This document shows, piece by piece, positions 17,934-42,117 of a stretch of DNA of 64,000 nucleotides. Below the pieces are notes generated by a model, which saw nothing but the letters and a program-made list of their open reading frames with translations, ran no database searches and was not told where the DNA came from. Made by a program: the position numbers and the translations under genes. Source of the DNA: Verrucomicrobiia bacterium (GTDB taxonomy: Bacteria > Verrucomicrobiota > Verrucomicrobiia > Limisphaerales > UBA1319). The first letter of the stretch is position 1. Every line of letters starts with the position of its first letter. The stretch covers positions 2,112,001 to 2,176,000 of the forward strand of contig OY760937.1 in NCBI GenBank assembly GCA_963664225.1. The letters run 5' to 3'.

Positions 17934-17962
17934 TTGCCGAAATGTCATAAACTTCTTACCAT
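17934..17962 (+). promoter_or_regulatory. Putative sigma-70 promoter giving a leaderless transcript
   Basis: TTGCCG-17nt-TACCAT ending 7 nt before ATG 17970. Confidence 0.4.
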
Positions 17963-17969
17963 CCGTTCT

Positions 17970-25184: not shown

Positions 25185-25849
25185 TTGGTCCTGGAGTGAC
25201 GCCGCCAAAAAAGCAACGAACTGCCAAAAACCGACAAAACCAATGTGTTTGGCTCTGGCACGGCCTGCGTGGAAAATTGAATATCGTCGATGATGGCTCT
25301 GCCACCATAGGATTCCATAAACCGTAACTCACCGGTTTGGCCGACATACGATGAAATGTCTGCGGCGCAAATGTCGAAGCCAGACTCAGACCATATTACA
25401 GTGTAAGGGAGAATGTTACCTTTGAAACTCACATCAAATCTTTGAGGGCTTTCTCCTCTGAATAAGAACACCACTGAAAGCGAATTGAGTGGGATTTGCC
25501 CGGTCTGCGCTATCGATGCACTTCCCGCAAATCCTTGAATACCGACAGAATATTGCCCGTCAAGAGGAACAAAACCATATACGTAATTGGTATCATTAAC
25601 CGCAATAACGGGTCCACCTAAACTTGTATTATCGTACCAGACCGAGTATGTTTGAACGTCATCGTAATAAGCATTCCATCCCGGCAATGCTTTATCTACT
25701 GGAATCGGATAGCCAAATGGATATTCTGATACATTTGCCGCTTCAAAATCCATGTTCTGGAATGCACCAAACGCCTGTATTGAAATTGCAACCTGTAGAA
25801 TTGCGATAAAAGAAAGGGATGATTTAAATATTCTCATGGCAGGGGCCAC
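25181..25849 (-). CDS. PEP-CTERM protein (paralog A)
   Basis: Signal peptide, FQNMDFE, VPEPNTLVL...WRRHSRTK. Confidence 0.9.
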   Translation of the reverse strand: MAPAMRIFKSSLSFIAILQVAISIQAFGAFQNMDFEAANVSEYPFGYPIPVDKALPGWNAYYDDVQTYSVWYDNTSLGGPVIAVNDTNYVYGFVPLDGQYSVGIQGFAGSASIAQTGQIPLNSLSVVFLFRGESPQRFDVSFKGNILPYTVIWSESGFDICAADISSYVGQTGELRFMESYGGRAIIDDIQFSTQAVPEPNTLVLSVFGSSLLFWRRHSRTK

Positions 25850-25854
25850 CCAGA

Positions 25855-26855
25855 GTTTCGCTCATTCTTATCAGATTTGTGCGTTGATGATTGAGGGGGC
25901 AAGGCGTGGTGCTTTGATCGGTTCCATTTTTTACGTGCGGTGGATTATCCATGATTAATCACAAGGTAAATCGTCCCCCGGATATTGGATGTGGATTGGC
26001 ATGGACATAACGCGGCTATTAGTTCACAGAGGGGAACTTCTGTCAAAAAGCATTGTGAGGCGATGTGCAAAGAGGGTGCAGGGCAAAACTCGGACGTGTG
26101 GAAAACAGGTATGGCGGTACGCGGATTGTATATCGGTTTTGCGGCAAGGGCAGAAACAGCGTGCGGGGATCACGGTGCATTTGAGAACGTTGGATTTAAG
26201 AATGTCGTAAGCCGGTCAGGAGACCGGCGCTCCGAAGACATCAGCGTGCGGGAATTGGATTTTAACCACGAACGACACGAAATATGCGAAATGGAAAAAA
26301 GAGCCTCACCCCGTCCCTCTCCATCTGGCGTAGGAGAGGGAGGAGTATTGGACGGTTCTGAAGCGATTGGGAGGTTGGGAAGGTGCCACCGCGTGGGGTT
26401 GACGGGGGCAGAATGGATGATGGGAAGAATGGAAAATGGATAATGAAACAAAAAGGCATTGACGCACGCCCTCATCCCGGCCTTCTCCCCCAGGAGAAGG
26501 AGAAGTATTGCGAGTTATGGTTTTATTGAACGGTTAGGAAGGTGCCGCCGCGTGGGATTTGAGTGCGGGGGGATGGAACAAAAACATGGCATGCCACGAG
26601 GCGTGCGAAATGCATTAAATGTGATGCGGGCAGCGGGGTTTTCACGGTCGGCCTCCGGGTGAACTAAAGAAAAAGAGAGCCTCACCCCGCCCCTCTCCTT
26701 CTGGCGACGGAGAGGGAGTAGTATTGGACGGTTCTGAGGCGATTGGGCGGTTGGGAAGGTGCCGCCGCGTGGGGTTGGTTGAGGGAAGAGTGGATCATTG
26801 ACACTAGAGGGCAAAGGCGGCGTGCTTTGAGTTTCAGATAGGCACGCCTCGGACT
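25855..26855. repeat. Leader repeat copy 2 plus extra REP-like palindromes
   Basis: Near-identical to copies 1 and 3; CCTCACCCCG.CCCTCTCC...GGAGAGGG palindromes at ~26303, 26470, 26680. Confidence 0.9.
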
Positions 26856-27539
26856 TTAGCTCCTCACACTTTTCTTGCGCCACAAGAACCGTCCGGACAT
26901 GGCGAGTGCGCCCATTGTAAAAAGGGCTGCCGTGCCTGGTTCGGGAACGGCCTGCGTGGAAAATTGAATGTCGTCGAGGATGGCTCTACCTCCATAGGAT
27001 TCCGTAAACCGCAACTCACCGGTCTGGCCGGCATACGATGAAATGTCTGCGGCGCAAATGTCGAAACCAGGCTCAGACCAGATTACACTGTAAGGCAGAA
27101 CATTTCCTTTGAAACTTACATAGAAATATCCAACTTGTTCATCTCTAAGCAAAAAAACCACGGACAGCGAGTTCATCGGTATTAATCCCGTTTGTCCTAT
27201 GGATGCCGGACCGCCTCCAAGTGGTCTTCCCTCGAGTCCAACTGAATATTGGCCGTCCAATGGAGCAAAACCATAGGGAAAATTGGTGTCATTGATGGAA
27301 ATTGCTGCTGCGATTGCAGCCGCATTATCATAGTAGATTGTGTGCGTTGGAACATTATTGAAATATGCATTCCATCCCGGTATACCTTTTTCAACAGGAA
27401 CCAAGGGGTAGGTTGGATAATACCCCCCTAGATCCGCTGATTCAAAATCCATATTCTGGAAAGTCCCCTGCCCAACCGCTGTGAGGGCGGTCAGACAAAA
27501 TACTGTGAGGCTCGTCAAAGCCAACAGATGATGATGCAT
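26856..27539 (-). CDS. PEP-CTERM protein (paralog B', near-identical to B)
   Basis: Core almost identical to 24492-25184; start shifted to MHHHLL. Confidence 0.9.
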   Translation of the reverse strand: MHHHLLALTSLTVFCLTALTAVGQGTFQNMDFESADLGGYYPTYPLVPVEKGIPGWNAYFNNVPTHTIYYDNAAAIAAAISINDTNFPYGFAPLDGQYSVGLEGRPLGGGPASIGQTGLIPMNSLSVVFLLRDEQVGYFYVSFKGNVLPYSVIWSEPGFDICAADISSYAGQTGELRFTESYGGRAILDDIQFSTQAVPEPGTAALFTMGALAMSGRFLWRKKSVRS

Positions 27540-27544
27540 GTTTT

Positions 27545-28222
27545 TTATTTGGTCCTGGAGTGACACCGCCAAAAAAGCAACAAACTGCCTAAAACCGACA
27601 AAACCAATGTGTTTGGCTCTGGCACGGCCTCCGTGGAGAATTGAATGTCGTCGAGGACATTGCATCCTGAGTTTTCCGTAAACCTCAATTCTCCTGTTTT
27701 GCCATCGTATGAGGAAATATCGGCATTATAGATGTCGAAGTTAGGCTCTGACCATGTTTTAACATATGGAAGCACATTTCCATCAAAGGTTACCACTAAT
27801 GTTCCCTCGCTGATATTTCTAACAAGAAACACCACTGACAATGATCCTGCAGGAATCGTCCCAGTTTGCGCTATGGATACAGGAAATGTCCTAGCATCAA
27901 GACTTGCAGAATAGTTGCCATCCATTGATGCGATATATGGATCATCCGGCGAATTATTGTCAAATAATGATATTAACGAAGATCCTAAGCTGCGATTGTT
28001 GTACCACACATAACTCGTTTGCTCGCCTCCATAATATGCACTCCAACCAGGCAACACATCACTTATAGGAAATGGGCCAAGATCAGGCTGTGGATACTTT
28101 GAAATATTTGCAGATTCAAAGTCCAAGTTCTGGAAAGCCCCAAACGCTTGTATTGAATTCACAATCTGCAGAATTGCGATAAAAGAAAGGGATGATTTAA
28201 TTTTTCGCATAGCAGGGGTCAC
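27545..28222 (-). CDS. PEP-CTERM protein (paralog A')
   Basis: Same signal peptide and tail as paralog A, divergent core. Confidence 0.9.
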   Translation of the reverse strand: MTPAMRKIKSSLSFIAILQIVNSIQAFGAFQNLDFESANISKYPQPDLGPFPISDVLPGWSAYYGGEQTSYVWYNNRSLGSSLISLFDNNSPDDPYIASMDGNYSASLDARTFPVSIAQTGTIPAGSLSVVFLVRNISEGTLVVTFDGNVLPYVKTWSEPNFDIYNADISSYDGKTGELRFTENSGCNVLDDIQFSTEAVPEPNTLVLSVLGSLLLFWRCHSRTK

Positions 28223-28227
28223 CCAGA

Positions 28228-28785
28228 GTTTCGCTCATTTTTACCAGGTTTGTGCGTTGATGATTGAGGGGGCAAGGCGTGGTGCTTTGATCGGTTTTAT
28301 GTTTCACGCGTGGTGGATTATCCATGATTAATCACACAGCAAATCACCCCCCGGATATTGGATGTGGACTGGCATGGACATAACGCGGCTATTAGTTTAC
28401 AGAGGGGCACTTCTGTCAAGAAGCATTGTGAGGCGATGTGGAAAGCGGGTGCAGGGAAAGACTCGGGCGTGTGGAAAACAGGTATGGCGGTGCGCGGATT
28501 GTATATCGGTTTTGCGGCAAGGGCAGTAACGGCGGGCGGGGCTGGCGGTGCATTTGAGAACGTTGGATTTAAGAATGTCGTAAGCCGGTCAGGAGACCGG
28601 CGCTCCGAAGACCTCAGCGTGCGGGAATTGGATTTTAACCACGAACGACACGAAATATGCGAAATGGAAAAAAGAGCCTCACCCCGTCCATCTGGCGACG
28701 GAGAGGGAGGAGTGTTGGACGGTTCTGGAGTGATTGGGCGGTTGGGAAGGTGCCGCCGCGTGGGATTGACGGGGGCAGAATGGGA
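28228..28785. repeat. Leader repeat copy 3
   Basis: Aligns with copy 2 at offset 2373. Confidence 0.9.
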
Positions 28786-29039
28786 GCAAATAGAGCATCA
28801 CGCGGAGGAACGGAGAACGCGGAGAATTGGAGTGGAAGGGACCCGAAAAGCCACCCCACCCCGGCCCTTCATCTGGCGATGGAGAGGGAAATGATTTTGC
28901 TGCGTATGGGGTTATTGGACGCGTGGGTTGGATGGGCGGCGCGCGTTAATCAATGATTGGCGGCACTCGCCAGAGTGCCGCCACGGGTTGACCCATGGAG
29001 CTCAGGCAAAGAATATTCAGGATGGAAAATGGATTTTAC

Positions 29040-29726
29040 TCAGTGCGAGTACGTGCGGCGCCGTCTCAGGGCGGCGATGCCACACATTGCACCAAAAGCA
29101 ACCGCATACGATGCGGGCTCAGGCACTGCCGATATTTGCATTCCCGCCAGGCCGTTGTATTCACCACCGCCGCCAGTGTAAGAGAGAGTCATTGTTCCGT
29201 CGGTAACTGCGACATTGTGAATAACATCCCACGAGACGCCTGGTACCAGAGATCCATCGATGCTTCCCGGAATGCTCGATACGGAAGTGCTGTTAATCGT
29301 AAAGTTGCCTATATCCACACTAGGATGAATTGGCGCATAATAGGAAACGTTATAGGTTCCATTCTCCAGACCGGTGATGGAAACTTTCCAGGATCCTGGA
29401 GCCATGGAAAAAAAGTTGTCGTCTGCAAGGCGTTCGTTAATCCCGCTGGTTCCATAGAAGCCGCCATAATTCTCAGCAATGCAGGAAACACTTGCCGTTG
29501 TGGCGTTTCCACTCAGGTCGAACAAAGCGGTTGGACCAGCAGACGTGATCGTGTTCCAACTCCCAGTCTGGCCAATGGCGGCTCCGTATGTGGCGTCAGG
29601 AGTTCCACTAGCATCGCCAAAATCGATATTGAATAAGGCTGCATGGGCTTGATTTGCCAACAAGGCAATACCCAATCCACACAGCAGAATGAGTTTTTTA
29701 TTGGTTCGGTTGGTGCGCGTGTTCAT
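29040..29726 (-). CDS. PEP-CTERM protein (different core)
   Basis: Signal peptide ending AHA; FNIDFG; VPEPASYAV...RRRR. Confidence 0.9.
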   Translation of the reverse strand: MNTRTNRTNKKLILLCGLGIALLANQAHAALFNIDFGDASGTPDATYGAAIGQTGSWNTITSAGPTALFDLSGNATTASVSCIAENYGGFYGTSGINERLADDNFFSMAPGSWKVSITGLENGTYNVSYYAPIHPSVDIGNFTINSTSVSSIPGSIDGSLVPGVSWDVIHNVAVTDGTMTLSYTGGGGEYNGLAGMQISAVPEPASYAVAFGAMCGIAALRRRRTYSH

Positions 29727-29829
29727 TTCGATAATTAATTAATTATAACGTTATCGTCGGTCAAGGAGGATTCGTCATTTGCCTCCTGCCATTTCTGTGA
29801 AAATTGGCCTGCGCTTGTGTAATCCAGCG

Positions 29830-30575
29830 GCTGCAGATTGGAAATCTGCGATACGGCAGACAAGATGTCTGCGCTACGGGGAAAAGATTTTGCGATTACG
29901 GCCGGGACTTTGCGTTTGAGACGGTTCGCAGATTGGCAAGCTGCGATTCAGGTCAAAGAAGGGACGCCGGGTCAGGGGACCCGGCCTACAGGATGGCGCG
30001 CTCTGTAATGCGATAGTCTGACTGGCTGAAGAAGAGTTACAGGCCTGATCGTTTGGGCGAAATCGAGGAGGATCAACGTCTGCAGATTGGAAATCTGCGA
30101 TACGGCAGACAGGATGTCTGCGCTACGGGGAAAAGGTTTTGCGATTACGGCCGGGACTTTGCGTTTGAGACGGTTCGCAGATTGGCAAGCTGCGCTACGG
30201 GTTGCGGTGTTGGCGCGCTGGCAGGCAAGGTGGCTGCGAAATAGTGGCAACGGTGTTTGTGCTTCGGGTTGCTGAGGGTTCAGAGCGTTAAGCCGGTCTG
30301 GAGACCGGCACTCCGCTATTGCGGTTTTACACGCTCGGGCAGTCCAGAGGCTGCAGATTGGAAATCTGCGATACGGCAGACAAGATGTCTGCGCTACGGG
30401 TTGCGGTGTTGGCGCGCTGGCAGGCAAGGTGGCTGCGAAATAGTGGCAACGGTGTTTGTGCTTCGGGTTGCTGAGGGTTCAGAGCGTTAAGCCGGTCTGG
30501 AGACCGGCACTCCGCTATTGCGGTTTTACACGCTCGTGCAGTCCAGAGGCTGCAGATTGGAAATCTGCGTTACGG
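29830..30575. repeat. Cluster of REP-like palindromes (BIME-like) with 249-bp and 199-bp period duplications
   Basis: GCAGATTGGAAATCTGC x4, GCAGACA.GATGTCTGCGCTAC x3, GCCGGTCTGGAGACCGGC x2, GCCGGGTCAGGGGACCCGGCCTAC. Confidence 0.85.
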
Positions 30576-30586
30576 GTCGGGCAGCT

Positions 30587-32179
30587 TTATCGGCGGGTGG
30601 GTTTTCGAGGGAATGGCACGATGCGGGCGGGGGCGTGGACGGCGGTGGCGGCGTGGGTGCTGAGGGCGCCGGCCCATGCGATGTCGCAATGGCTGGCGGG
30701 GTTGAGGGGGTTGGCGCCTTCGGTGAATATCCAGCGGCTGCCGGCGTAGGTTTTGCGCAGGGCGAAGAAGTCCGCCGCGATATCCGGCGCGGTGCGGGGC
30801 AGGATTTTGTTTGCCGCGCTGAGCTGGTCCATGAGGACAAAGCCCATGTCGGATTTTGCGGAGCGGAAATTGACGGGGAGGAATCGACCGGGAAAGGCTT
30901 TGGCGGCTTCCCAGCAAATCTGACGTCCCAGGCCCGTTTCGTCGCCTGCGGCCATTACGCCGGGGAGGTTCTTGAGAATGGTGAAGAGCGCGGTTTTTAG
31001 AAAGTGCCAGTCCTCGGTGCGGCAGGTGAGCAGGCCGCGAAGGGTGAGGGAGGAGGCTTCCTGGGAGTCGATGTAGATGACGGCGAGGTCCCCTTCCCCA
31101 CTGGCGGCGACGTCGAAGCCCACGCGCCAGCGGGCATCGACGCCAAACAACGGCGCGAAGCCCTGGGCCAGGTATTGCTGAATGCGGGTTTCGCGCGCGG
31201 GCTGGCCGGAGGGGGTGAACGCGCCAAACAATTCGGCGATCTGCGGGGCTTCGAGATGGAGGCGGGCCAGAGTTGTATCGCGCAGACAACGTTCCATGGC
31301 CTCCCAGGAGACGATGGCGAGAGTGCCGCCGCGCGGGTTGCACATGTATTCCTGCTCGAAGATTTCAGGAAGGCGGGCGCGGCTCCGGCAGTCTTCAATG
31401 AATTGATCGCGGGTCCATTGGCGGCCGCTGGCGCGGTTGATGGCCTCGACGAGTCCCTGATTCACCGCGTCGAGCAGGGTGACGCGGTAGTAGCTCCAAT
31501 GGCCTGCGGACGCGCTGGAACTTGCGCCTGACTGCATTGTGGTTTGCGTTTGGATTTGCGCCTGCGCCTGTATTTGTGCCTCTCGGGCAAAAGTGTGAAA
31601 GAGGGTTTGATCGCCATTGCTCGAGGACCAGACGCCCAGATCGTAACCCCAGGTGACGCGGCCCGACGCGGCGGCCCAGAGTTGATCGGGCGCGCTGTGA
31701 AACGCGAACTCGTCCAGCCCCACGTCGCCGCCAAAGGCGCGCAGGGCATTGGGATTCGAGCTGAACGCGAGGATGCGGGAGCCGTTGTCGAAGCGAATGA
31801 CGCCCGCCTTCACCTCGTCGGTAAAGCCGGTGTCCTTGCCAGCGGAATCGAAACGCGGCACGCGGAGGTCCTCGACGCCACGCGAGAGAATGGCGCGGGT
31901 GAAATCGTAGGCTTCGGCGAAGCGGTGACAGGTGCGGACGTATTCCAGCGCGGTGGAATGGTCCTTGGTGGTGAACAAATAATCGCGCCGGCGGTGCTGA
32001 AGACGCTTGCGGACGTTCTTGAAGGCGTCCGCAAAGGTCCAGCCGATGCGCACGGATTTCTCGGCGAGGCGCAGCGGCGAATCATCGAGAATCCACGCGC
32101 GTTGATAGGGCAGGAAATAGCGGCGGAGCGCGGCGGATGAGTCTATTGAGTGGGTGGATTGGATGGATTGGGCACACAT
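30587..32179 (-). CDS. Mu-like (gp28-type) terminase large subunit
   Basis: FLPYQ Q-motif, EKSVRIGWT Walker A variant, LDEFAFH Walker B, FEQEYMC, GFDVA, DETGLG, HCDIAWA nuclease motifs; start uncertain. Confidence 0.88.
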   Translation of the reverse strand: MCAQSIQSTHSIDSSAALRRYFLPYQRAWILDDSPLRLAEKSVRIGWTFADAFKNVRKRLQHRRRDYLFTTKDHSTALEYVRTCHRFAEAYDFTRAILSRGVEDLRVPRFDSAGKDTGFTDEVKAGVIRFDNGSRILAFSSNPNALRAFGGDVGLDEFAFHSAPDQLWAAASGRVTWGYDLGVWSSSNGDQTLFHTFAREAQIQAQAQIQTQTTMQSGASSSASAGHWSYYRVTLLDAVNQGLVEAINRASGRQWTRDQFIEDCRSRARLPEIFEQEYMCNPRGGTLAIVSWEAMERCLRDTTLARLHLEAPQIAELFGAFTPSGQPARETRIQQYLAQGFAPLFGVDARWRVGFDVAASGEGDLAVIYIDSQEASSLTLRGLLTCRTEDWHFLKTALFTILKNLPGVMAAGDETGLGRQICWEAAKAFPGRFLPVNFRSAKSDMGFVLMDQLSAANKILPRTAPDIAADFFALRKTYAGSRWIFTEGANPLNPASHCDIAWAGALSTHAATAVHAPARIVPFPRKPTRR

Positions 32180-32727
32180 GGCGGTGAAGGGGGTAAAGGT
32201 TGAGATTGCGTGGCGGGTTCCTGGGAGATTCCAAAGACTTCGTCCACCTTGCGGATCACGGCCTGGCGATCCTGTTCGGACCATTCGGACTGTGACGGGA
32301 GCGCAGACAAACTGGCCCGGGCCTGGGTCAAGCTCTGGAGACGCTGGCGCGCGATATCGATGGTCGTGTCGCGTTGACGGAGCTTGCGCAGGCTCACAAA
32401 CGCCGCGAGGTCCTGGCGCTCGATGGCGGCCAGCTCGAAGGCCAATTGGGCGGCCTCGTGTATGCGTTCGCGCTGGGTCGTGTCGAGGTCGCCTTGATCG
32501 AGGCGTCCCCTCAGAGTGTCCGCAAACTCAGCGGCCAGTTCCAGCGAACGCGTCATGTGCCACCAGGCGGGGAACCGGCCCACCGTGCTCTCTGAAACCT
32601 TGAGGCCAAACTCGGCGGCAATGCGCTCCGCGGTTTCCTTCTTGGTGCTGTTTTGCAGCCACCGGATCACCTGGCGTTGTTTTTCGAAGGGCAATGCGCG
32701 CAAGGGGGATTCGTTATTATTACTCAT
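32143..32727 (-). CDS. Putative terminase small subunit (Mu gp27/DUF3486-like)
   Basis: N-terminal HTH-like (SPLRALP...AAEFGLKVSESTVGRF); directly upstream of large terminase. Confidence 0.6.
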   Translation of the reverse strand: MSNNNESPLRALPFEKQRQVIRWLQNSTKKETAERIAAEFGLKVSESTVGRFPAWWHMTRSLELAAEFADTLRGRLDQGDLDTTQRERIHEAAQLAFELAAIERQDLAAFVSLRKLRQRDTTIDIARQRLQSLTQARASLSALPSQSEWSEQDRQAVIRKVDEVFGISQEPATQSQPLPPSPPCVPNPSNPPTQ

Positions 32728-32751
32728 GGTCGAATGCGGTTAGTAATGTGC

Positions 32752-33009
32752 TTAAAACATCTGCTGCTCGAACTCGGCCCGGCCCGCGTCCGTGAGCCGC
32801 CACTTGACGGGACCGCCCAGGCCGTCCCGCGCGCCGATGATCAGATGGGCGGTGTCCAACTCGCGCAGAGCGGCCTGAAACTCAAACTCGCCGGGAGCGG
32901 GCCGCAGGAGCAGGCGCAACTGGTGATGGAGCGTGGGTTCGGGCAGCAGGTAGCCCCGGCACTGGGAGAGGGCGCGGAGGATTTCGCATTTCAATGGGTA
33001 GTTTTGCAT
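32752..33009 (-). CDS. Small winged-helix protein (Mu gp26-like)
   Basis: EILRAL...LRELD...WRLTDAG; syntenic with Mu gp26. Confidence 0.55.
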   Translation of the reverse strand: MQNYPLKCEILRALSQCRGYLLPEPTLHHQLRLLLRPAPGEFEFQAALRELDTAHLIIGARDGLGGPVKWRLTDAGRAEFEQQMF

Positions 33010-33014
33010 GGGGT

Positions 33015-33476
33015 TTAGATTTTGGTTAAACGGGCGATCTTCTCGGGCACTTCGCCGATGCGGGCATGGAGGCCCTCGATTTTTTCGTGCATGCCGTTGA
33101 TGAGTTCATCAATGCGCCGATGCAACTGGGCGTCGCACTGGGTGCGGATTTTCTGGGATTCGTCGCGGTCGGCGCGCATCTCCATGCGCAGCGATTCGAG
33201 GCGCTCCTGCAGGCGTTGGACGCGTTCCTCCCCGGCGAGCATGAGAGTCTCGCGGTCGTCGCGGATTTGGTCGCGCAGTTCCTCGAAACAATCCTCCAGG
33301 CGCTCCACGCGGCTGCAGACCGAGGCGAGCTCGGCGCGGTGGGCGTAGGCGTCCGCAAAGCTGACCTCGCGTTTTTGCGGGAGGAACATTTTCACAAACG
33401 AGGCGATGTTCAGGGCGAGCAGGAGGTAAAAACCGAATTCGACGATCCAGCGACCGTGACTGGCTAATTCATTCAT
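33015..33476 (-). CDS. TM-anchored coiled-coil protein (Mu gp25/DUF2730-like position)
   Basis: N-terminal hydrophobic helix followed by heptad-rich coil; synteny. Confidence 0.5.
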   Translation of the reverse strand: MNELASHGRWIVEFGFYLLLALNIASFVKMFLPQKREVSFADAYAHRAELASVCSRVERLEDCFEELRDQIRDDRETLMLAGEERVQRLQERLESLRMEMRADRDESQKIRTQCDAQLHRRIDELINGMHEKIEGLHARIGEVPEKIARLTKI

Positions 33477-33544
33477 GTGTGTGTGGGTTGATGGTTTGGT
33501 GCGATTGAGTTGAGTTGATTTTGACCGGGATGAATGCAGGAGTA

Positions 33545-34459
33545 TCAGGCGCGGACCACGGCGTTGCGGCGGGCGCGAACGAGGGCCTTATGCGAGGTGT
33601 CCATGGACTGGCTCAGGGCGTTCAACAAGGCAGGCTGTGGCGCGGCGGTTGGATTTGGACTTGGAATTGGGTTTGGACTTGAACTTGGGCCTGGGGACGG
33701 AGCCGAAGCGGTGGATTGTTTCCAGGTCTCGATGCCTTTCACAGTGGCGTCGAAGGCGTTCGTGCTCACCACGCCGACGTAGCCTGCGAGGGTCGGCAGC
33801 TTCCCCACCAGCCATGCGAGAAGGCGGCCCAGAATGGGGATCACGGCGGGCACAAACACCATCAAAGCAATCAAACCCGCGACGGGCAACGCGAGGCGAC
33901 CGACCCAGCGCGCCCAGAAGGAAATCCGGGCGTTGCGTGTGGATTCGGCCTCGGCGCCCATTTGGGTGAGGCGCTCGACGACGGCGCGGTGCCGACCCAG
34001 AACGCGATCCTGCGCGGCGAACGGTTCCCGCAAGGCGTCGGATACGGCGGTTTGCAGGACGATTTCAGGCGCGACGTGAGGGCTGTTTGACGCGGCGCTG
34101 GAGCGGGCTTGTTCCACCTGCGCGAGCATTTCCGGCACGGGCAACGGGTGAACCGGGGAGCCGAGGACGCGCTGGTTCTGCGAGACGAACGCGCGGGCGG
34201 TTTCCGAGCAGGCGTCCCGGTTGGTGAGGGGCTGGAGGTCCAGGGCCTGACGGGCGGCCTCGTTATTGACGCGGGCGGCCTCGACAAGTCTGGCATCGAG
34301 TTTCTGGCGCGTGGCGACGCGATACGTGCAGCCTGTCATTGCGAGGCACAGGGTCAATGCGATGACTGATAAAAGCCACAAAGTCAGGGCTGCGGAGGTT
34401 TGGTGCGGGATGGTTTGCGGATTAGTGAGTTGGGTGGATTGGACGTTTTTAGCATTCAT
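33545..34459 (-). CDS. Phage-like lipoprotein/membrane protein (possible lysis accessory)
   Basis: Lipobox-like MTGC, C-terminal TM helices; first gene of the operon. Confidence 0.55.
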   Translation of the reverse strand: MNAKNVQSTQLTNPQTIPHQTSAALTLWLLSVIALTLCLAMTGCTYRVATRQKLDARLVEAARVNNEAARQALDLQPLTNRDACSETARAFVSQNQRVLGSPVHPLPVPEMLAQVEQARSSAASNSPHVAPEIVLQTAVSDALREPFAAQDRVLGRHRAVVERLTQMGAEAESTRNARISFWARWVGRLALPVAGLIALMVFVPAVIPILGRLLAWLVGKLPTLAGYVGVVSTNAFDATVKGIETWKQSTASAPSPGPSSSPNPIPSPNPTAAPQPALLNALSQSMDTSHKALVRARRNAVVRA

Positions 34460-35106
34460 GGTGGTGGTTGTTCATGGGTCATGGACACGCCGAAGAAGGG
34501 GGCCGTGACAGGTGCCGGGCTGGAACTCCAGGCGGGAGCGGACGGAGGGGAGCGCACCCGTCACGGCCCGGGGCGGGCGTGTTCGGTGGGTTGTGGGATC
34601 GCGGAGGTGTCGCCGCAATTAAAGCGCGGCGTTCATCCGTCCATTCCATCCACTCGCGATGCCAATTGCAGTTCATGCGGGCGCAGAGTGGCAGGAATGC
34701 GATGGAAGGCGTGAGGCCGCGGTCGGCGGCATCGGCTGGATCGGCAAAAAAATGTCACGCGAAGACGCGACGACACGAAGAAGAAAGGGGGGCTGGAAGG
34801 GACAGGATGACAAGATGACAGGATAAGAAAAACCGTTCTAAACCACGAAAAGCGCGAAAAGGAGGAAATCCGGGGCTGGCGGGTTTTCGCGCTAAGAGGC
34901 CTGATATATTTCTTGACCAATATCACAAAACCCCCTAATCTAAGGGTCCAATCACAGATAAACAGGCAAATGCATGACCGAAGTTAACCTTTGTTAATTT
35001 TTGCCAGCGAACACCCATACGCTCATGGAGAATTACAGACGCATAGCCGGGTTGCTGGCGGGGAAGAACCGCCCGTCGTTTGATCAAAGTCAGACTGCTT
35101 AAGCGT

Positions 35107-35460
35107 ATGCCTGCATTCAAAGTTCATCTCAACCGCAAGAAGGTTTGCACAGCCAGTCTTGATGGCATCGGCGTGTTTGGCGCTCATGTCAGTTATGTCT
35201 GCCGTAAGGATGCCCCCGAGCAAAAGACTTTATCGCTTCATGTTGGCGGCTGGGATGCCACCGCAGGCGAGCACATTATCTGGCAAGAGGCTCATCCCAT
35301 TTGTGTTGGCGACAGGTTGAGTATTGAGGTGGTGGAGTCTGCGAAAGCAGACAAACCGGTAATCCGTAAGAAACCCGACCCGGCTGCAGATTTGCGCGCC
35401 CGGAAAAAGTATGTGCGTAAGTTGGCCAAAGAACTCGGATGGAAAATACAGGCGAAATGA
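35107..35460 (+). CDS. Hypothetical protein
   Basis: Compact protein-like ORF MPAFKVHLNRKKVCTA...AKELGWKI. Confidence 0.65.
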   Translation: MPAFKVHLNRKKVCTASLDGIGVFGAHVSYVCRKDAPEQKTLSLHVGGWDATAGEHIIWQEAHPICVGDRLSIEVVESAKADKPVIRKKPDPAADLRARKKYVRKLAKELGWKIQAK

Positions 35461-35596
35461 CGACGATGCCTGATAATTCGCGTGACGCAACCACCGTTGG
35501 CAGCAGCTTTCTGGCGACAAGCGTTGGGTTTGCCACGCCGTCGTTTGGAGGGGAATCGGTTATTGGCCAGCATGCAACATTTCGTCTCCTAAATTT

Positions 35597-36187
35597 ATGA
35601 TACCGATCAAGATTGAGTGTGGATGCGGCCAGCGATACGCGTTTGACGTGGAGCCGGTCAATGGGTTCATGCCAAGTGCGGTGGCCTGTCCCACTTGCGG
35701 TGTGGATGGCACCTCTGCCGCCAATGAATTGATCGCCCGGACTGTGGTGGCGGAGCCGGAAGCGCCGCCCATCCCCATCCCAAAAGCGCGGCCAGCCCGC
35801 ATCCCCGCCCCGGCACAACCCGCCCCACCGGCCGTTTCAGCGGCAGCGGCAACGACAACGGGAAATGCGACCTCGGAATTCAACATGGGTCTTGGCGTTT
35901 TGGGGGCGTTTCTGGGCGCATGCATTGGCGTGGGGTTAATGTATTTCTTCTACGAATTGGCGGGAGTCCGTTTCCCGTTGCTGGGCATTGGCATTGGATT
36001 TTTGACGGGTTATGGAGCGAAAATTCTCTTCAAGGGCAATGACATCACGCTGGGCGTCATTTCGGGAGTCATTGCGTTGCTGGCGATCGTCGGAACGCTG
36101 TATTTGATGTATGGATCGTTTCCCATGATGAGCATCATCTCTGTGATCGTCGGCACGAGCGTGGCCTACAACAGGGCTTCCAGTTAG
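35597..36187 (+). CDS. Zn-ribbon membrane protein
   Basis: CGCG...CPTCG, Pro/Ala linker, about four TM helices. Confidence 0.75.
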   Translation: MIPIKIECGCGQRYAFDVEPVNGFMPSAVACPTCGVDGTSAANELIARTVVAEPEAPPIPIPKARPARIPAPAQPAPPAVSAAAATTTGNATSEFNMGLGVLGAFLGACIGVGLMYFFYELAGVRFPLLGIGIGFLTGYGAKILFKGNDITLGVISGVIALLAIVGTLYLMYGSFPMMSIISVIVGTSVAYNRASS

Positions 36188-36317
36188 GCACTTCTGTAGC
36201 CAACTGAACGCGGGGGGCAGAAACTAACTTACCACTTTTTGCGCTGCGGAAGGATCCTCCATCACCGCCTGAATAAAGGCGGACGAAAGCGAAAAGCGTT
36301 CTTGGATGGCCGGTCTC

Positions 36318-36767
36318 CTACGACGGATACCTGCCCGAAATGTAATCCTCGAGATGGCCGATGGTGGCGTTCTGCGCGGAGATGATCCAGTTGACCAGGT
36401 TGCCGATGGAGACGACCCCAACCACCCGGTCCCCTTCCAGAACGGGCAGATGACGCACGCGGTTGTCATTCATCAGGCGCATGCAATCCTGAACCGTGTG
36501 GCGGGGAGTCACGGTAACCAGTTTCGTGGTCATGATTTCGCGAACAAACGTCTCTTTGGATGATTTCCCCTTGATGGCGATTTTGCGGGTGTAATCGCGC
36601 TCTGAAAGCATGCCGACCAATCGAACCTGCTCCATGACCAGCACGGCGCCCAGGTTTTTCGCCGCCATGAGGCCGATGGCTTCAAACACGGTTTGATCCG
36701 GGGTGACGCTCCATACGTCGCGCCCTTTGAGGTTCAGGACGGCATCAATTGTTCCGTTTGCATTCAT
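36318..36767 (-). CDS. CBS domain protein
   Basis: GMLSERDY, VREIMT, RVRHLPV, GVVSIGNLV. Confidence 0.93.
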   Translation of the reverse strand: MNANGTIDAVLNLKGRDVWSVTPDQTVFEAIGLMAAKNLGAVLVMEQVRLVGMLSERDYTRKIAIKGKSSKETFVREIMTTKLVTVTPRHTVQDCMRLMNDNRVRHLPVLEGDRVVGVVSIGNLVNWIISAQNATIGHLEDYISGRYPS

Positions 36768-37185
36768 AAGTCGTTGCCACTTTCAGCCTCTCCCTGCCTG
36801 CCCCGCGACACGGCGCAGCCCTTTGGGTGAACCGACCCGTGACGCGCGCTGTTTTACGAACCGTAACCTAAGCGATCCCGGGGGAATTTGCGAGTTTTTC
36901 GGCGGGACAATCCGGGTGCATGACAAAATTCACGCGTGCGGAAAACAGCCATGGCCGAGGCTGATTTGAAAGAGTGAATTGCGTTTTGAAGCGCCCTTTT
37001 GTCATGCAGGCGTCACGCAACGGCCGTTTACAGCCGCGTTGACCCTATCAGGGTCTTGAGAATCAAGGCGATCTGCCAATCCCTGACGTGACAGACGGAG
37101 ATATAGCCGCTGACATGCGAATCGGGGTGCTGAGTTGCGCTGCCATCGTTTCATAATAGAATCACCCCGTAGCGGAGACCTTTTA

Positions 37186-39160
37186 GTAGAGTAGGCGAAA
37201 TGGACGGATTGAATGGCCGTGGCCAATGACCGTCGCATTTCGCCCCTCATCGAACCGGACAGGCGGTTTTCCCGCATCCGGCTCTCCGGGGATCATACGT
37301 TGCATCGCTTCGACGTCATCGTTTCCATGCCGCATATTCCGGCATTTGGTATAAACCATAACGCTCATAGAGATCCTCCTTGGGGTATGTGGACCATTGC
37401 GCCCGACTACATCCGTGTTTGCGCCACAACCATCGTTGTAACTTGCTGCTGACGTATTCGTTCATCTGGCCCATCACCTTGGTGCTGTTCCCGTAGTGAA
37501 AGTAACCCTTCCAACCTTTGAGTTTCTTGTTGAGCTCGGGAATCACCTCTCCGATATCACGCCATAGCGTGCTTCGGTTGAGTTTCTCCCGAATCCCGTC
37601 TCGAAACTTCTTCTGGCTCTTGGGATGGGGTTCCACATGCGGATATTTCCATTTCCCCTTCCCCTGTCGCATTGTTAGCGCGAATCCCAAGAATTTGATG
37701 CCATCCTGGCGGAGGTCCACCAAGCGGGTCTTCTTCTCGTTGAGCACTAACTCGCGTTGCTTCAGCCATCGTTCCAGTCGTTCCATCAGTTCCCGTCCCT
37801 GCCCCGGCTGTCCGAGTATCACGAAATCATCCGCGTATCTCACCATCACGGGTTTGAGTTCGCAGCGTTCGTTGACTTCCCAATCCAACTGGTTGAGGTA
37901 TGCATTGGCTAAAATCGGCGATACAACCCCGCCTTGCGGAGTCCCCCGTCGATTCTGACCTTGCCCCCCCTTTGTCCCGCCTTTCCCTGTGTCGCTTTGC
38001 GGTTCATTCACGGGCGCGCGCAGCCATCCTGCGATCAGCTTGAGAATTGTTCCATCGCTGACCCGCTTGGCCACTATGCGCAACAAACGCCTGTGGGGAA
38101 TGCTGTCAAAATACCCGCTTAAGTCCGCGTCTATAACTTCGACGCGTCCTGTCAGCGTAGCCTTCTTGATCGCCTCCATTGCTTGGTGGGCATTGCGTTT
38201 GGGATGATAGGCGTAACTGTTCGGATGACTATCGGCTTCCAGAATCGGCAGCAATACAATCACCACCGCTGTCTGCACCACCCGGTCTTTCACTGTCGGG
38301 ATGCCCAGGGGTCGCAGCTTCCCGTCTCCTTTTGGTATATACACACGCTTCACCGGGCTTGGCCGATACTTCTTCGTGCGTAACTCCTCCAGCAGTTGGT
38401 TCCGCCATTGGTCCCAGGCTTCGTCGCTGGCAAGATAGACGTCGCATGTCTGCCCGTCGATCCCAGCCGCGCCATTGTTGTGCGCCACGGAGGCCATTGC
38501 CGTTTCCAGCACGTCCTTCCGCAGCAGTTCTCCGTAGAGGCTGTAAAACCGATACTTCGGCTCAGCCTTGGCTTTGCAATATAGCGCTCGCTGCAGCTTT
38601 TGAACTTTTATCGGGGTTGTTATCCGTTGAAAAAGTGTTTCCACTCCCTCAAGGCCATCTCCCTGTCCCTCGCTGTTTTGATTCGCTTCGATCCAAGTGC
38701 CTTCCCTTGGCTCCGCCGGGGTTTTGGTCGCCCCAGCTTCTTCGCTACTATGGAAGACTCCGACTTCTCTGGCTGCCCGTGCGGCCTCGGAGGGTGTTCC
38801 TCCTTGCACCGGCGGTTGAGGCTTTATCGCCCCGCCTCCAGAGATCTCCCAGCTTACCTTGGTTTCCCTTCCTGTCGTGTCGCCCTCGCTGACTCCGCCG
38901 GAATCAACAGCGCCCATTTGACGATTTGATGACGCCGCGTTTCTGCCTTCGCCGTTCGGGTAGCGGCTCGGCTTACCGGTTATTTCGGTTTCGGAGCTCA
39001 TTTGATGAGGTTTACTTTCGTTACGACCCGACAGTTCTTTCAGCGTCCCGCTTGTGGTTCGGCCTCACGGCCTCGTCCCGGACGCTGCATTTCGGTCGTG
39101 AACCGTCTAATTCGACCGGCGGGACTTTCACCCACGAGGCTACCAATTTCACTGGCGCAC
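37186..39160 (-). mobile_element. Group II intron (IIB-like), complete
   Basis: Starts GTGCG at 39160, ends CTACTCTAC at 37186; domain V GAGCCGGATGCGGGAAAACCGCCTGTCCGGTTC with AGC triad; EBS1 loop matches the 5' exon. Confidence 0.92.
37316..39001 (-). CDS. ltrA: Group II intron reverse transcriptase/maturase (true start probably downstream of 39001)
   Basis: LQRALYCKAK..RFYSLY, AGIDG, RPLGIPTVKDR, GTPQGGVVSPILAN, RYADDF, FLGF. Confidence 0.95.
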   Translation of the reverse strand: MSSETEITGKPSRYPNGEGRNAASSNRQMGAVDSGGVSEGDTTGRETKVSWEISGGGAIKPQPPVQGGTPSEAARAAREVGVFHSSEEAGATKTPAEPREGTWIEANQNSEGQGDGLEGVETLFQRITTPIKVQKLQRALYCKAKAEPKYRFYSLYGELLRKDVLETAMASVAHNNGAAGIDGQTCDVYLASDEAWDQWRNQLLEELRTKKYRPSPVKRVYIPKGDGKLRPLGIPTVKDRVVQTAVVIVLLPILEADSHPNSYAYHPKRNAHQAMEAIKKATLTGRVEVIDADLSGYFDSIPHRRLLRIVAKRVSDGTILKLIAGWLRAPVNEPQSDTGKGGTKGGQGQNRRGTPQGGVVSPILANAYLNQLDWEVNERCELKPVMVRYADDFVILGQPGQGRELMERLERWLKQRELVLNEKKTRLVDLRQDGIKFLGFALTMRQGKGKWKYPHVEPHPKSQKKFRDGIREKLNRSTLWRDIGEVIPELNKKLKGWKGYFHYGNSTKVMGQMNEYVSSKLQRWLWRKHGCSRAQWSTYPKEDLYERYGLYQMPEYAAWKR

Positions 39161-39329
39161 ACCCGAAATCCGAAATAGGAACGGCCCATCTGACGCAATC
39201 ATTTGGCCATCCATGGTTTGAAACCGGCTGTGGAGTATTGGTTTAATACACCTTCGCCGATTGCAAATCATGGCTGACTCAAAGCATTGCATCGTCTTGA
39301 CCATTCTTATTTCGGATTTCGGGTTTAAA
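39161..39329. mobile_element. MITE-like element with ~29-bp imperfect terminal inverted repeats (left TIR split by the intron)
   Basis: TTTTA|ACCCGAAATCCGAAATAGGAACGG versus reverse complement of CCATTCTTATTTCGGATTTCGGGTTTAAA. Confidence 0.6.
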
Positions 39330-39387
39330 TGCCTTTTTTAATTTGCAGATCCGGGGCTGCCGCCGCCAACGCTTCAGTCTGTCAGAA

Positions 39388-42117
39388 TCATTTTTCCACA
39401 CGCTGGATGCGCAGGTTGTCGAGGTAGAATGCGGTGTCCGCCTCCGCCGTGCTGCTGAAGCCCAGCCACTGCAATTCCCGGAAATCCTGGCCGCTCATCG
39501 GGAGAGCCTCAAAGGTTTTGGGTTGTTTACCTTCGGGCCTCAGTGTCAAACGAAACACGCGGGCCGCACTCTTTCCCAGTGGTGCCTGTATCTCCACATG
39601 AATCCATTGACGGCTCGGCACGGTTGCCAGAAGCCTGCCGCCAGCACTGACGTTCCCATTTCCTTCGAAGCGCAAGCTCGGGCCGATGTTCTGCGGGTAT
39701 GAACTGGTGTCGCGCCACTCGGTGATGAACTGCGCGTTGGTTTCAAACCAGACATCGAAGCTCTGGCACACCATGCCGGAGACAAGGTGCGGTTCGTAGT
39801 AGAAATGCGGTTGCCAGTTGGGCCGGAGCGTCGCGGAATCCGTCACTTTCAAACTCCGCTGGCCGCTGGCCGCGCGCTCTCCTGTCACCCGGATCGACGC
39901 CCCCTGCTCCTCGCCGCTAACCCGGGCCTGTTCGGGCGCTGCGCCGACCGGCGTTGTCTCAAATCCATCATCCACCTCCAAAGGTTTTGGGGGCGCAGGT
40001 GGTGGAGGCAGCGCGATCCTGGGGCAGCGCGCGTGGCTGGCCTCGTTCACCCAGGCGGAATCGCCATAGAGTCCGACCTGACTGATATCAAACTCCCCGA
40101 ATCCGAGTTCCAGGGCTGGCGAAGTGCTTTGGAGCCGGAAATCGTGTCCGTCAGCATTCACAAACTGAGGATCCGCAATCCGCGAGTGTGTATCCAGCCC
40201 GATGGCCTGCCATTCTCCAATGGTCCGGCGGAAGAACCGGAGCGCCTCGGGCCCCGCCGTATGCCAGTAAACGTTCTCGTCCCAGTCCCCTGGCGATTCT
40301 TTGGCGGCGAGACGTTCGCCAAGCGATTTTTCGCCGTAGTCCACCATGAGTTGGCCCTGCGTGAGGTAAACGATGTTGCGACGGAAGGCATTGGGACGCT
40401 TTTCGAAATAAGGCCACAGCGCCTGGTTGGCGGAGCAGGCGAAGATGTTATTCCGGATGACATGCTCATGGCCCCCGTTGTTGAACATCAGACCGCCACT
40501 CAGCGTGTTATAGACGAGGTTGCTTTCAACGAGGTAATTCCCGCACTGCGCATCCAGGTAAATTCCCCAGCCCAGAGCCGGCGCGGAGTATGGCCAGAGG
40601 TCGTGAAAGACATTGTTGCGAATGACGCTGCCGGGTGAAACCCCGAGGCAGTAAATCAAGCCGGCGTCACTCATGACCCCATGACCCAAATCGTGAACGT
40701 GGTTGAACTCGATGAGGTTGTTGGTCGTGCGATTCGGCTCCAGGCCCCAGTTCCAGCCGACGCTGATCCCGGTGTAGTAGAAGTCGTGAATGTCGTTGTG
40801 CGAAATTCGGTTTCCGCTGCTTTGGGCAACCCAGATTCCGACGCAGCCGGGATAAATCCGTCCACCGTCGAAGAGGTGGTTATTGTCCACAAGAGTGCGA
40901 CTGGTTTCCGCCACGTCCGAACTGGCCATGCGGTCCTCCCCCACCCGGATGCCGCCCGCACCGAGATCGAAGAGGCGATTGCGCTGGATGCGGCAGTCCT
41001 TGCAGCCCCGCCGGAACCAGATCCCATAGGTGCCGATGTGGGCCACTTCACAACCTTCGATGGCGCAGTCCATGGCCCCATCCGCCGTGATGGTGGCCGG
41101 GACTTCCACGGCCGCCTGGGTGCTGCTGTTACCCTTGGCGTCGAGCACCCAGTCCGCGTGATGAAAGGCCAACCCCCGGAGGGTCACGTGCCTCACGAAC
41201 TGGCCCTTCCCGGGATCGCCAGCCAGGGACACAAAGTTGGTCAACACAGGAGCCATAATCGGCGTGTCGCCCAGCCGTTCCCCAGGCATCGGCCAATAGG
41301 TCAGCACGCCCGTTTCGCGGTTGAGATACCATTCCCCCGGGGTGTCGAGCAATTCTCGCGCGTTCTCCACAAAATAACGCTGATGCTCCTCCCAGTATCC
41401 CAAGCCCCACCACTCCTTCATCGGGGCGGCCAATTCGACGATATTGGAAACCGTGTCCACCGACTTGAGCGGGTGGATGGAGTTCTCCCATGAATGCATG
41501 AGCACCAGGTTCACATCGTTGAGCCGTGGCCAGGGCTGAAGATCCCCGGGCGCAAATACGAACCGTTCGCGCGCCACGGGTTTGGCGTTCGGAATCGGCG
41601 GGCCGGGAATCAGCCGCGCGATGCGGTAATAACCGGTGTTCGGGGAACGCGCCCGCTGGCGCCGCTGCCCATCGACAAATAATTGCCGGAAATACCACTG
41701 CCCCGATTTTACTTCAGGGAGGGTGGTCTCCCAAAGGTTCCCGGTCCGATGAAACCCCGTGATGGATCGTCCGCCGGAGAAAACCGGCTTCTCATTCTGG
41801 AACGCGGCATATACCACCGGCCCCTCGGTTGTCCCGGAGTCTTGGGGCTGGAGCACTAACGGTGCTTTCAGGAAATAAGTTCCGCCGCGCACAAAGACCT
41901 GCACCGGCCGACTCCCAATCTCCGACCGCTGCTCCCGGATCCGGTCGCGGGCTCCCGCCAACGAAGACAACGGCCCGTCTGTACGCGCCGCGTTGGGAGC
42001 GGCCAGACGGCCGGACCAACCGTCCTCGCCATTGGTGGAGATGTAGAGCGTGAAAGGTGCCGGGGCGGCGGCTGTCGCGGTGCAGACAGCCAGAAAGAGG
42101 GCCAGAATCAGGTTCAT
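39388..42117 (-). CDS. Secreted right-handed parallel beta-helix protein (GH141-like) with C-terminal beta-sandwich
   Basis: YISTNGED.WSG, VRGGTY, LDTPGEWY, YTGISVGWNWG, GIYLD, NxI repeats. Confidence 0.85.
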   Translation of the reverse strand: MNLILALFLAVCTATAAAPAPFTLYISTNGEDGWSGRLAAPNAARTDGPLSSLAGARDRIREQRSEIGSRPVQVFVRGGTYFLKAPLVLQPQDSGTTEGPVVYAAFQNEKPVFSGGRSITGFHRTGNLWETTLPEVKSGQWYFRQLFVDGQRRQRARSPNTGYYRIARLIPGPPIPNAKPVARERFVFAPGDLQPWPRLNDVNLVLMHSWENSIHPLKSVDTVSNIVELAAPMKEWWGLGYWEEHQRYFVENARELLDTPGEWYLNRETGVLTYWPMPGERLGDTPIMAPVLTNFVSLAGDPGKGQFVRHVTLRGLAFHHADWVLDAKGNSSTQAAVEVPATITADGAMDCAIEGCEVAHIGTYGIWFRRGCKDCRIQRNRLFDLGAGGIRVGEDRMASSDVAETSRTLVDNNHLFDGGRIYPGCVGIWVAQSSGNRISHNDIHDFYYTGISVGWNWGLEPNRTTNNLIEFNHVHDLGHGVMSDAGLIYCLGVSPGSVIRNNVFHDLWPYSAPALGWGIYLDAQCGNYLVESNLVYNTLSGGLMFNNGGHEHVIRNNIFACSANQALWPYFEKRPNAFRRNIVYLTQGQLMVDYGEKSLGERLAAKESPGDWDENVYWHTAGPEALRFFRRTIGEWQAIGLDTHSRIADPQFVNADGHDFRLQSTSPALELGFGEFDISQVGLYGDSAWVNEASHARCPRIALPPPPAPPKPLEVDDGFETTPVGAAPEQARVSGEEQGASIRVTGERAASGQRSLKVTDSATLRPNWQPHFYYEPHLVSGMVCQSFDVWFETNAQFITEWRDTSSYPQNIGPSLRFEGNGNVSAGGRLLATVPSRQWIHVEIQAPLGKSAARVFRLTLRPEGKQPKTFEALPMSGQDFRELQWLGFSSTAEADTAFYLDNLRIQRVEK

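Follow-up and report, generated by a model that had tools for sequence, protein, structure and literature searches.

To our knowledge, the known gene transfer agents (GTAs) come from a handful of lineages and are nearly all tailed. As described in PMC5026251, RcGTA of Rhodobacter capsulatus has a multi-locus "genome", and PMC9662315 classes GTAs as viriforms. For Rickettsiales and Holosporaceae endosymbionts, the account in PMC9254644 is of tail-less GTA head and capsid gene sets that are under purifying selection and whose function it gives as unknown. Phage-inducible chromosomal islands that form capsids (cf-PICIs) are reported to encode their own terminase and capsid, to lack a tail, and to release tail-less, DNA-filled capsids that can later acquire phage tails (bioRxiv 10.1101/2025.02.11.637232). 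Here we analyse a block of five genes in a 64,000-nucleotide stretch of a Verrucomicrobiia genome (GCA_963664225.1, contig OY760937.1, positions 2,112,001 to 2,176,000; hereafter the window). The block is an intact Mu-type lysis-distal and packaging module kept by the host lineage. Our preferred reading, a tentative one drawn from sequence comparison, is that it may have been domesticated as the packaging module of a GTA-like system, split and without a tail, that uses a distant head operon.

The arrangement with which the block has to be compared is that of phage Mu, whose annotated record (AF083977.1) gives the order o-spanin, gp24, gp25 (releasin, DUF2730), gp26 (winged helix-turn-helix, HTH), gp27 (small terminase, TerS) and gp28 (large terminase, TerL), and then the portal gene. 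In the literature outside subscription journals and supplements we found no Mu-derived or verrucomicrobial GTA and no "orphan terminase" family.

The terminase block

The studied genome (G000, 5.78 Mb) is set beside a congener (G001, genus g1) and two genomes of genus g3 (G003 and G008). On the minus strand of the window, five co-oriented, unbroken open reading frames (ORFs) run in the order A-B-C-D-E from 34459 down to 30587. They are listed with the two features that adjoin them.

33545-34459, minus strand: gene A, 304 aa, spanin-like lipoprotein topology
33015-33476, minus strand: gene B, 153 aa, membrane protein resembling Mu gp25 (releasin, DUF2730)
32752-33009, minus strand: gene C, 85 aa, predicted winged helix, in the position of Mu gp26
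32143-32727, minus strand: gene D, 194 aa, predicted small terminase (Mu gp27-like) with an N-terminal HTH
30587-32179, minus strand: gene E, 530 aa, Mu gp28-type large terminase (TerL)
30190-30575: tandem duplication, 199 nt x 1.9 copies, directly after the TerL stop codon
34649-34788, minus strand: conserved upstream element with a T-tract and three GCCGAY units; core at 34722-34745

The gaps between A and B, B and C, and C and D are 68, 5 and 24 nt; between D and E there is an overlap of 37 nt. As called, the gene E ORF spans 30587-32284 (565 aa); annotation and homology place the start at M36, which gives the 530-aa protein listed.

Judged from its sequence, gene E is an intact Mu gp28-type large terminase with predicted ATPase and nuclease activities. 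It scores 27 bits against Pfam Terminase_6N (cut-off 22), matches phrog_2 (4e-14) and phrog_5909 (8e-11), and is 29% identical to Mu gp28 (E 3e-24); JGI annotation calls its relatives "phage FluMu gp28-like". The motifs EKSVRIGWT, GDVGLDEFAFH, WSSSNG, GFDVAASG, GDETGLG and SHCDIAW are intact in eight relatives and align with Mu gp28. We take them to be the Walker A-like and Walker B motifs of the ATPase and the acidic residues of an RNase-H-type nuclease. Across 39 relatives, residues K41, G46, T48, D156, E157, S185, G354, F355, D413, H497 and D499 are near-invariant. The gene is single-copy in G000. Several TerL matches in other loci (L138 152-3024, L090-L093, L101, L102 and others) extend far over 530 codons or lie in pieces, and these may hold inserted sequence (an intein, intron or insertion).

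Gene D was assigned from family profiles and from its position. Alone, its product gives weak HTH matches and no PF11985 match at E 0.1. Its family aligns with the TerS-like family found next to TerL in phage-like contigs (hhalign 97.6%, E 2.6e-12); three of eight members of that TerS-like family touch Pfam Phage_Mu_Gp27 (PF11985), the best at 1.7e-5 and below cut-off, and the TerS of phage-like contig L037 matches phrog_426 at 4.8e-5. Gene D lies immediately 5′ of TerL and overlaps it, in the position that TerS occupies in L037, in a second phage-like contig (L038) and in Mu. In the metagenome loci L075, L081, L114, L115 and L141, the TerS-like gene before an orphan TerL encodes 440-600 aa where ~200-260 aa is typical, and the extra length is a long C-terminal extension.

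The product of gene C is a predicted winged-helix DNA-binding protein. Its AlphaFold model (pLDDT 91) has the topology H-H-H-b-b-H, and the best Foldseek matches are PadR/MarR regulators (TMq 0.72-0.80, E 2e-3 to 1e-2); Mu gp26 is annotated as a winged HTH protein. Homologues of gene C stand directly 5′ of TerS in L037, L038 and a prophage of genome G309, and in L080, in which no TerS was recognised, another lies ~0.6 kb 5′ of TerL. Gene B, two genes 5′ of TerS, encodes a small protein with a single N-terminal transmembrane helix and a coiled coil. At 20.6 bits against DUF2730 (PF10805), below the cut-off of 24.9, it is gp25-like and not a family member, and its alignment with Mu gp25 is collinear and weak (22.5% over 102 aa, E 0.045). 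Gene B is linked, by way of its homologues in G003 and G022, to the genes that immediately precede C-TerS-TerL in L037, L038 and the G309 prophage; tblastn with gene B returned no match in 50,697 phage records. Gene A stands where Mu has its spanins. It combines a lipoprotein-type signal (LAMTGC; LLAGC in G001; the lipobox of the Mu o-spanin is LTGC) with a helical middle and, by hydropathy, a C-terminal membrane segment at ~185-221. No Pfam or PHROG family matched it, its homologue in G001 is 44% identical, and its nearest protein atlas clusters, a weak match (0.92), are 93-96% viral hypothetical proteins.

The original prediction, made from this stretch of DNA alone, had described a compact, uninterrupted operon ending in a large terminase, and the five minus-strand ORFs with their intact ATPase and nuclease motifs bear this out. 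The Mu gp25-26-27-28 order that it proposed is right by the annotated Mu record, and the correspondence extends one gene further upstream, to gene A. The low-complexity inserts it noticed are real: a 20-aa insert in TerL that is unique to G000, and proline/serine-rich tails in A and D. Its statement that the window holds no transposase, capsid, tail or integrase gene was upheld by Pfam searches of the 43 large window ORFs, which found none of the four. There is no portal gene directly 3′ of TerL; the 199-nt tandem repeat stands there instead. Some 40-57 nt of this repeat recur, with 28 short matches across the genome, and the predicted cluster of repetitive extragenic palindromic (REP) elements after the last gene is roughly right in the sense of a local tandem repeat of which part recurs genome-wide. 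The description of the GC content as host-like holds only approximately, at 62.8% for the block, 61.9% for the head operon and 56.0% for the genome, with third-position GC (GC3) of 0.72-0.84 in the block genes and 0.68-0.75 in five host genes.

A separate head operon and the retention of both modules

A Mu-like portal, protease and capsid operon elsewhere in the genome was among the things the original prediction had proposed to look for, and it is present. The Mu-type head operon of G000 occupies 2365090-2369742, 221 kb from the terminase block, with the following genes.

2365090-2366322: portal (PF06074, 2e-37)
after the portal: Mu-type protease (PF10123, 1e-29)
after the protease: scaffold-like gene
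after the scaffold-like gene: major head (capsid) protein (phrog_1005, 5e-40)
after the capsid gene: 278-aa gene (phrog_17104), conserved in G001

A PAS histidine kinase gene flanks the operon on one side and a DAHP synthase gene on the other, and like the terminase block it is single-copy in G000. An ORF6N/anti-repressor-type gene (phrog_4792, 1.4e-19; L004 1848-2468, minus strand; G000 ~2371848-2372468) is found 2 kb beyond the operon, past the DAHP synthase gene.

TerL has a match in 9 of 41 related genomes and, at E<=1e-50, in 11 of the 401 genomes of the order. Identity to the G000 protein is 70% in G001, 64% in G003 and G008, 60% in G022 and G157 (family f14) and 57% in G019, and a capsid protein more than 70% identical occurs only in G001 (89%), G003 (74%) and G008 (76%). 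All four genomes of genera g1 and g3 carry both modules, which are adjacent in one of them (G008). The three relatives are arranged as follows.

G001: terminase block with all five genes, A-E; head operon on another contig
G003: holin-like gene, overlapping transmembrane/lipoprotein pair, B, D, E; head operon on another contig
G008: block as in G003; head operon convergent to TerL on the same contig

Upstream of B in G003 (L017 7414-8131) and G008 (L018 8277-8900), a gene for a 63-aa membrane protein is followed by one for a 97-aa membrane protein, and the latter overlaps a 133-aa lipoprotein gene by 188 nt in another frame, resembling overlapping i-/o-spanin genes. At the TerL site, the five relatives examined all lack a portal gene and none carries a full Mu-like prophage, an outcome that favours retention by the host, as the original prediction had it.

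Selection was gauged by the ratio of nonsynonymous to synonymous substitution rates (dN/dS), calculated by NG86, a crude method; between G000 and G001, dS is about 1 and is saturated for TerL and A-D.

G003 vs G008, TerL: dN/dS 0.17 (dS 0.15)
G003 vs G008, TerS: dN/dS 0.20
G003 vs G008, B: dN/dS 0.32
G003 vs G008, head genes: dN/dS 0.13-0.44
G003 vs G008, host IDH (control): dN/dS 0.15
G000 vs G001, TerL: dN/dS 0.22 (saturated dS)
G000 vs G001, A-D: dN/dS 0.41-0.67 (saturated dS)
G000 vs G001, head genes: dN/dS 0.09-0.35

Values of dS are similar between the modules, at ~0.8-1.5 for G000-G001 and 0.06-0.33 for G003-G008. Between G000 and G001 the identity is 70% for TerL and 89% for the capsid protein, and it is 68-76% for two well-conserved G001 host flank proteins; by this measure of sequence identity, TerL and capsid are no more diverged from G001 than those two host proteins. 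Glycogen phosphorylase, tried as a species marker for the family, was useless, with no match in G001 and just 50-54% identity in the others. Conservation and dN/dS, which had been proposed as a check on host retention, give a divided answer: the ratios lie below 1 and both modules occur in four of four g1 and g3 genomes, and presence across the order is patchy (11/401).

A sequence motif upstream of the block was first spotted by eye. In G000 it lies some 260 nt 5′ of gene A and consists of a T-tract and then three GCCGAY units with a spacing of 9 nt; its core has one exact occurrence in the 5.78-Mb genome. Upstream of the corresponding G001 block, an element of ~140 nt is conserved, made up of CCCAT-like repeats, the T-tract and three GCCGAY units, with ~45 nt then remaining to an ATG. 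Copies are also found 5′ of the portal gene, as a core with two mismatches ~90-130 nt off in G000 and an exact core 45 nt before the ATG in G001; a shared core motif precedes both operons in both genomes. In total, G001 has five exact cores and one with a single mismatch, four of the six being near contig ends.

G001 copies of the element: contigs C53, C137, C95, C143, C150 and C187 (loci L167, L174, L172, L175, L176 and L177)

The copy on C150 includes ~105 nt of the 5′ coding sequence of the portal gene, ahead of a surface-protein gene. The element was not found at the terminase or head loci of G003 and G008. As a candidate promoter/operator it is a weak lead: it could be a host-type promoter unit serving both operons, or a dispersed repeat.

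Apart from two reverse transcriptases of group II introns, the remaining Pfam matches in the window are to ordinary host genes; the window contains no tRNAs. The two reverse transcriptase/maturase genes (RVT_1 + GIIM) lie at 22638-24149 (plus strand) and 37316-39001 (minus strand). Contigs of three sequencing runs reproduced this sequence in pieces over 24000-40000, with high depth on the group II intron and the repeats; at ~36.8-39.5 kb the depth is very high, which indicates a multi-copy intron. An 890-aa protein with HD-CE and HATPase_c_3 domains, encoded at 17934-20606 (plus strand) beside a GYF_2-domain protein, may be the product of a defence-type gene. Just downstream of the block, 26856-29726 (minus strand) encodes three paralogous secreted proteins with PEP-CTERM-like anchors (VPEP...), in a stretch of low GC (0.45-0.53).

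Possible use of the block and alternative explanations

In our preferred reading, the block would be the distal part of a Mu-type late operon that lost its phage context and was kept by the host. On a host signal it would be transcribed from its own upstream region, and D and E, acting as a terminase, would cleave DNA and drive it by headful into procapsids whose portal, protease, scaffold and capsid proteins are encoded 221 kb away. With A and B helping to breach the envelope at release, the outcome would be a DNA-filled, GTA-like particle with no tail (a viriform). Packaging by D and E into capsids of the distant operon appears the most economical mechanism. Expression, assembly, the choice of packaged DNA, release and any transfer are steps that we infer from the genes.

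Split loci, host flanks, single copies and no adjoining integrase or transposase are what we observe in G000, and they agree with a viriform, in the sense of host-fixed phage genes that are not self-mobilising. They do not describe an intact Mu-like prophage, as the five genes stand alone in the window and the head genes are 221 kb off, nor a capsid-forming PICI or satellite, since there is no integrase or island structure and the modules are unlinked. We think it likely that the module has a function and is under selection, and is not debris; a soil-type Verrucomicrobiota cell may still be using a tamed phage head that has no tail. The host-retained packaging module of the original prediction is strengthened by the intact genes, the head operon, the 4/4 co-occurrence and dN/dS values below 1, and is weakened by patchy presence and by the keeping of TerL without capsids elsewhere.

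A number of observations weigh against the split, GTA-like system. The tail or delivery structure expected of a GTA was not found in G000: searches for Phage_Mu_F, Phage_sheath_1, PhageMin_Tail, Baseplate_J and the HK97-type Phage_capsid returned nothing while controls matched, and no neck genes, endolysin or holin were identified. With the ORFs of seven related viral loci (tblastn) and 33 Mu proteins as queries, the G000 matches were confined to the TerL and head loci, a methylase and a transposase-like gene; 31 other Mu proteins had no G000 homologue at convincing E-values. The closest phage relatives of the head operon (capsid 55-58%) bear a TerL only 24-27% identical, and the closest phage-borne TerLs (54-61%) accompany other head genes; the terminase and head modules may stem from different phages. 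Occurrence is patchy in the family (3 of 9 other genomes) as well as in the order (11 of 401). Decayed copies of the TerL lineage (fragmentary, stop-containing, N-terminally truncated or interrupted) occur in four other genomes, at G154:C116:38745-39557, G101:C3:88943-90736, G309:C121 and C122, and G079:C118 (L051). G000 and G001 share no flank synteny, and the 3′ flank of a metagenome copy that is 93% identical (L144) differs as well, a comparison that is uninformative here because the genomes are too rearranged. As to the upstream element, its copy at the G000 head operon is not significant alone (nhmmer E 2.9), and three more copies in G001 precede unrelated host genes (TerC, a tricorn-like protease and surface-protein genes), which weakens the shared motif as proof of a dedicated regulon. 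The lone TerL genes of G022 and G157, described below, count on the same side.

The alternative that survives best, although we regard it as doubtful, is that the terminase (TerL with or without TerS) was exapted for a role without the cell's own capsids, the head operon being a separate matter. The enzyme might sabotage or hijack the packaging of an infecting Mu-like phage, in defence or in host-driven transduction in borrowed capsids, or it might serve as a chromosomal ATPase-nuclease. What favours this is the wider occurrence of orphan terminases. Phage-like contig L038 has the canonical order TerS-TerL-portal-protease-scaffold-capsid, and in L037 an SPP1-like portal with MuF and an HK97 capsid come after TerS-TerL. 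Among metagenome relatives with at least 1 kb after TerL (n=39), the portal is adjacent in 3 and there is none in 36. In the 14 with long flanks, Pfam places TerL among NusA/IF-2, RecA, tRNA synthetase, TsaD and similar housekeeping genes. About 10 of 15 loci from species-representative genomes, all but two labelled Verrucomicrobiota, are orphan TerS-TerL pairs; two separate pairs (L191 and L192, at 4.75 Mb and 5.83 Mb of OY969763.1) lie in one complete Verrucomicrobiae chromosome. In a 48-row TerL tree, the 20 known orphans require no more than three state changes, and 0 of 500 shuffles gave a number as low. The orphan rows form three groups with support of 100%, 100% and 99%; the last fork, setting aside G309, is unresolved. 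The ten portal-linked rows fall outside the orphan groups, with G309 at the unresolved base of the third. The G000 TerL belongs to a 100%-supported clade of eight rows, none portal-linked, with the context known for seven; this placement in the tree counts in favour of our preferred reading.

Exaptation gains most from the lone TerL of G022 and G157, two species of another genus, g20 (500 aa; L019 (G022:C58) 8174-11674; L156/L049 in G157). In both genomes it lies between hisF and the gene of a LuxR-type response regulator; the loci are syntenic with 80% nucleotide identity, and the TerL pair gives a dN/dS of 0.125 at dS 0.88, next to 0.089 for hisF and 0.067 for the regulator. No TerS beside TerL, no PF06074 portal and no related capsid gene was found in either genome. 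At the level of sequence, this locus offers the cleanest evidence of a host-fixed, selected terminase lineage, and it is also our chief ground for caution in linking the function of TerL to the head operon. TerL is kept under selection there with no portal or capsid found; therefore its retention need not involve capsids, and TerL may have a host role independent of these capsids. For the block itself, exaptation fits less well: in g1 and g3 the terminase always accompanies the head operon (4/4), with similar divergence, and the block keeps the lysis-type genes A and B and the winged-helix gene C, which other orphans lack. With A, B and C kept, particle production fits better than a lone enzyme. 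The response regulator of G022 and G157 also follows TerL in metagenome contig L111, and a receiver-domain protein is encoded just downstream of TerL in G003 and G008.

A further explanation, which we hold to be unlikely, is that the block, the head operon and perhaps a transposase-like cluster are scattered pieces of one or more Mu-like prophages, undecayed and with no present function. The genomes are highly rearranged, with G001 flank genes mapping all over G000, the window contains group II introns and repeats, and broken copies exist in other genomes. A stepwise shrinkage can be read across the lineages: g1 has A-B-C-D-E, g3 has lost C, and g20 has only TerL. G000 also has a candidate Mu-type early module at 5.746-5.752 Mb (L197 5328-13857), 3.6 Mb from the terminase block and with a GC of ~0.47-0.53. 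Here an HTH_3 repressor gene is transcribed divergently from genes for a 73-aa product, an 835-aa protein (27% identity to a phrog_310 transposase from viral contig L037) and an AAA_22 ATPase, with an IrrE/M78 peptidase nearby. Homologues of the 835-aa protein occur in G006-G009, and those of G008 and G006 lie next to Mu-like portal or capsid genes. G001 and G003 lack the transposase-like gene, which does not travel with the modules, and on that ground we rejected the cluster as part of the system. Debris is further opposed by the five block genes and the head genes being intact in four genomes across a dS of about 1, by dN/dS of 0.09-0.22 for TerL and capsid, which is comparable with host genes, and by retention at a fixed site in g20 with dN/dS 0.125.

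A complete but dispersed phage or classical tailed GTA, with neck, tail and lysis genes too divergent for detection, would suit the poor coverage of Verrucomicrobiota phage tail genes, the lack of PHROG matches for most of the ORFs that follow the capsid gene in viral contigs related to it and the conservation in G001 of the 278-aa gene (phrog_17104) after the capsid gene, and it is very unlikely given that tblastn with every ORF of the seven related viral loci found nothing beyond the two modules, that four tail families and the HK97 capsid were negative while controls matched, and that host genes bound the head operon.

The split, tail-less, GTA-like system can also be placed in a broader picture, which we offer as a speculative possibility. 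Verrucomicrobiota may hold a large undescribed family of host-fixed Mu-type terminases that made at least two to three separate exits from phage context and then diversified on the chromosome; in the lineage of G000 the terminase would form half of a split, tail-less, GTA-like system, its operons perhaps sharing a host-type upstream element. If the preferred reading is true, viriforms would have an independent origin outside the known GTA families, Mu-derived, split and tail-less, and a tail-less, DNA-filled capsid would raise the question of its use, be it competence transfer, borrowed phage tails, defence or another. The orphan terminase clades that are under selection among housekeeping genes, sometimes without capsids, suggest that phage terminases can be exapted alone, and this wider pattern may outweigh the single locus in importance. 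For annotation, a lone terminase should not automatically be taken as prophage debris.

Comparison with known systems

The block resembles the Mu late operon (genes 23 to 28) in gene order and sizes from the lipoprotein/spanin-like gene through TerL, which is 29% identical, and is further connected to it through B (a weak DUF2730 link), C (a predicted winged-helix fold) and D (a profile connection with gp27). In Mu, however, TerL is directly followed by the portal, F, G, protease, capsid and tail genes, and transposase A/B and the repressor are encoded upstream, whereas the G000 block stops at TerL, the head genes are 221 kb off, and no F, neck or tail genes were found.

RcGTA (PMC5026251) and the putative G000 system have in common chromosomal, phage-derived packaging and head genes that are split over loci; in RcGTA these are host-inherited and under purifying selection, and in G000 they probably are too. 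RcGTA differs in being of HK97/lambdoid type, alphaproteobacterial and tailed, with DNA transfer shown by experiment. The putative G000 system is of Mu type, belongs to Verrucomicrobiota, has no tail genes that we could find and is known from its genes alone.

The cf-PICIs, by the description in bioRxiv 10.1101/2025.02.11.637232, likewise have their own terminase and capsid with tail genes absent, but they are contiguous, mobile, helper-induced, self-packaging islands. The genes of G000 are split and host-flanked, with no integrase or island seen.

The Rickettsiales and Holosporaceae sets are likewise kept without tail components and, according to PMC9254644, retain head, capsid and portal genes. 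Those sets are RcGTA-like alphaproteobacterial remnants in reduced endosymbiont genomes (PMC9254644), whereas the G000 system would be of independent, Mu-type origin, in a 5.8-Mb genome of free-living size and with its terminase unlinked from the head genes.

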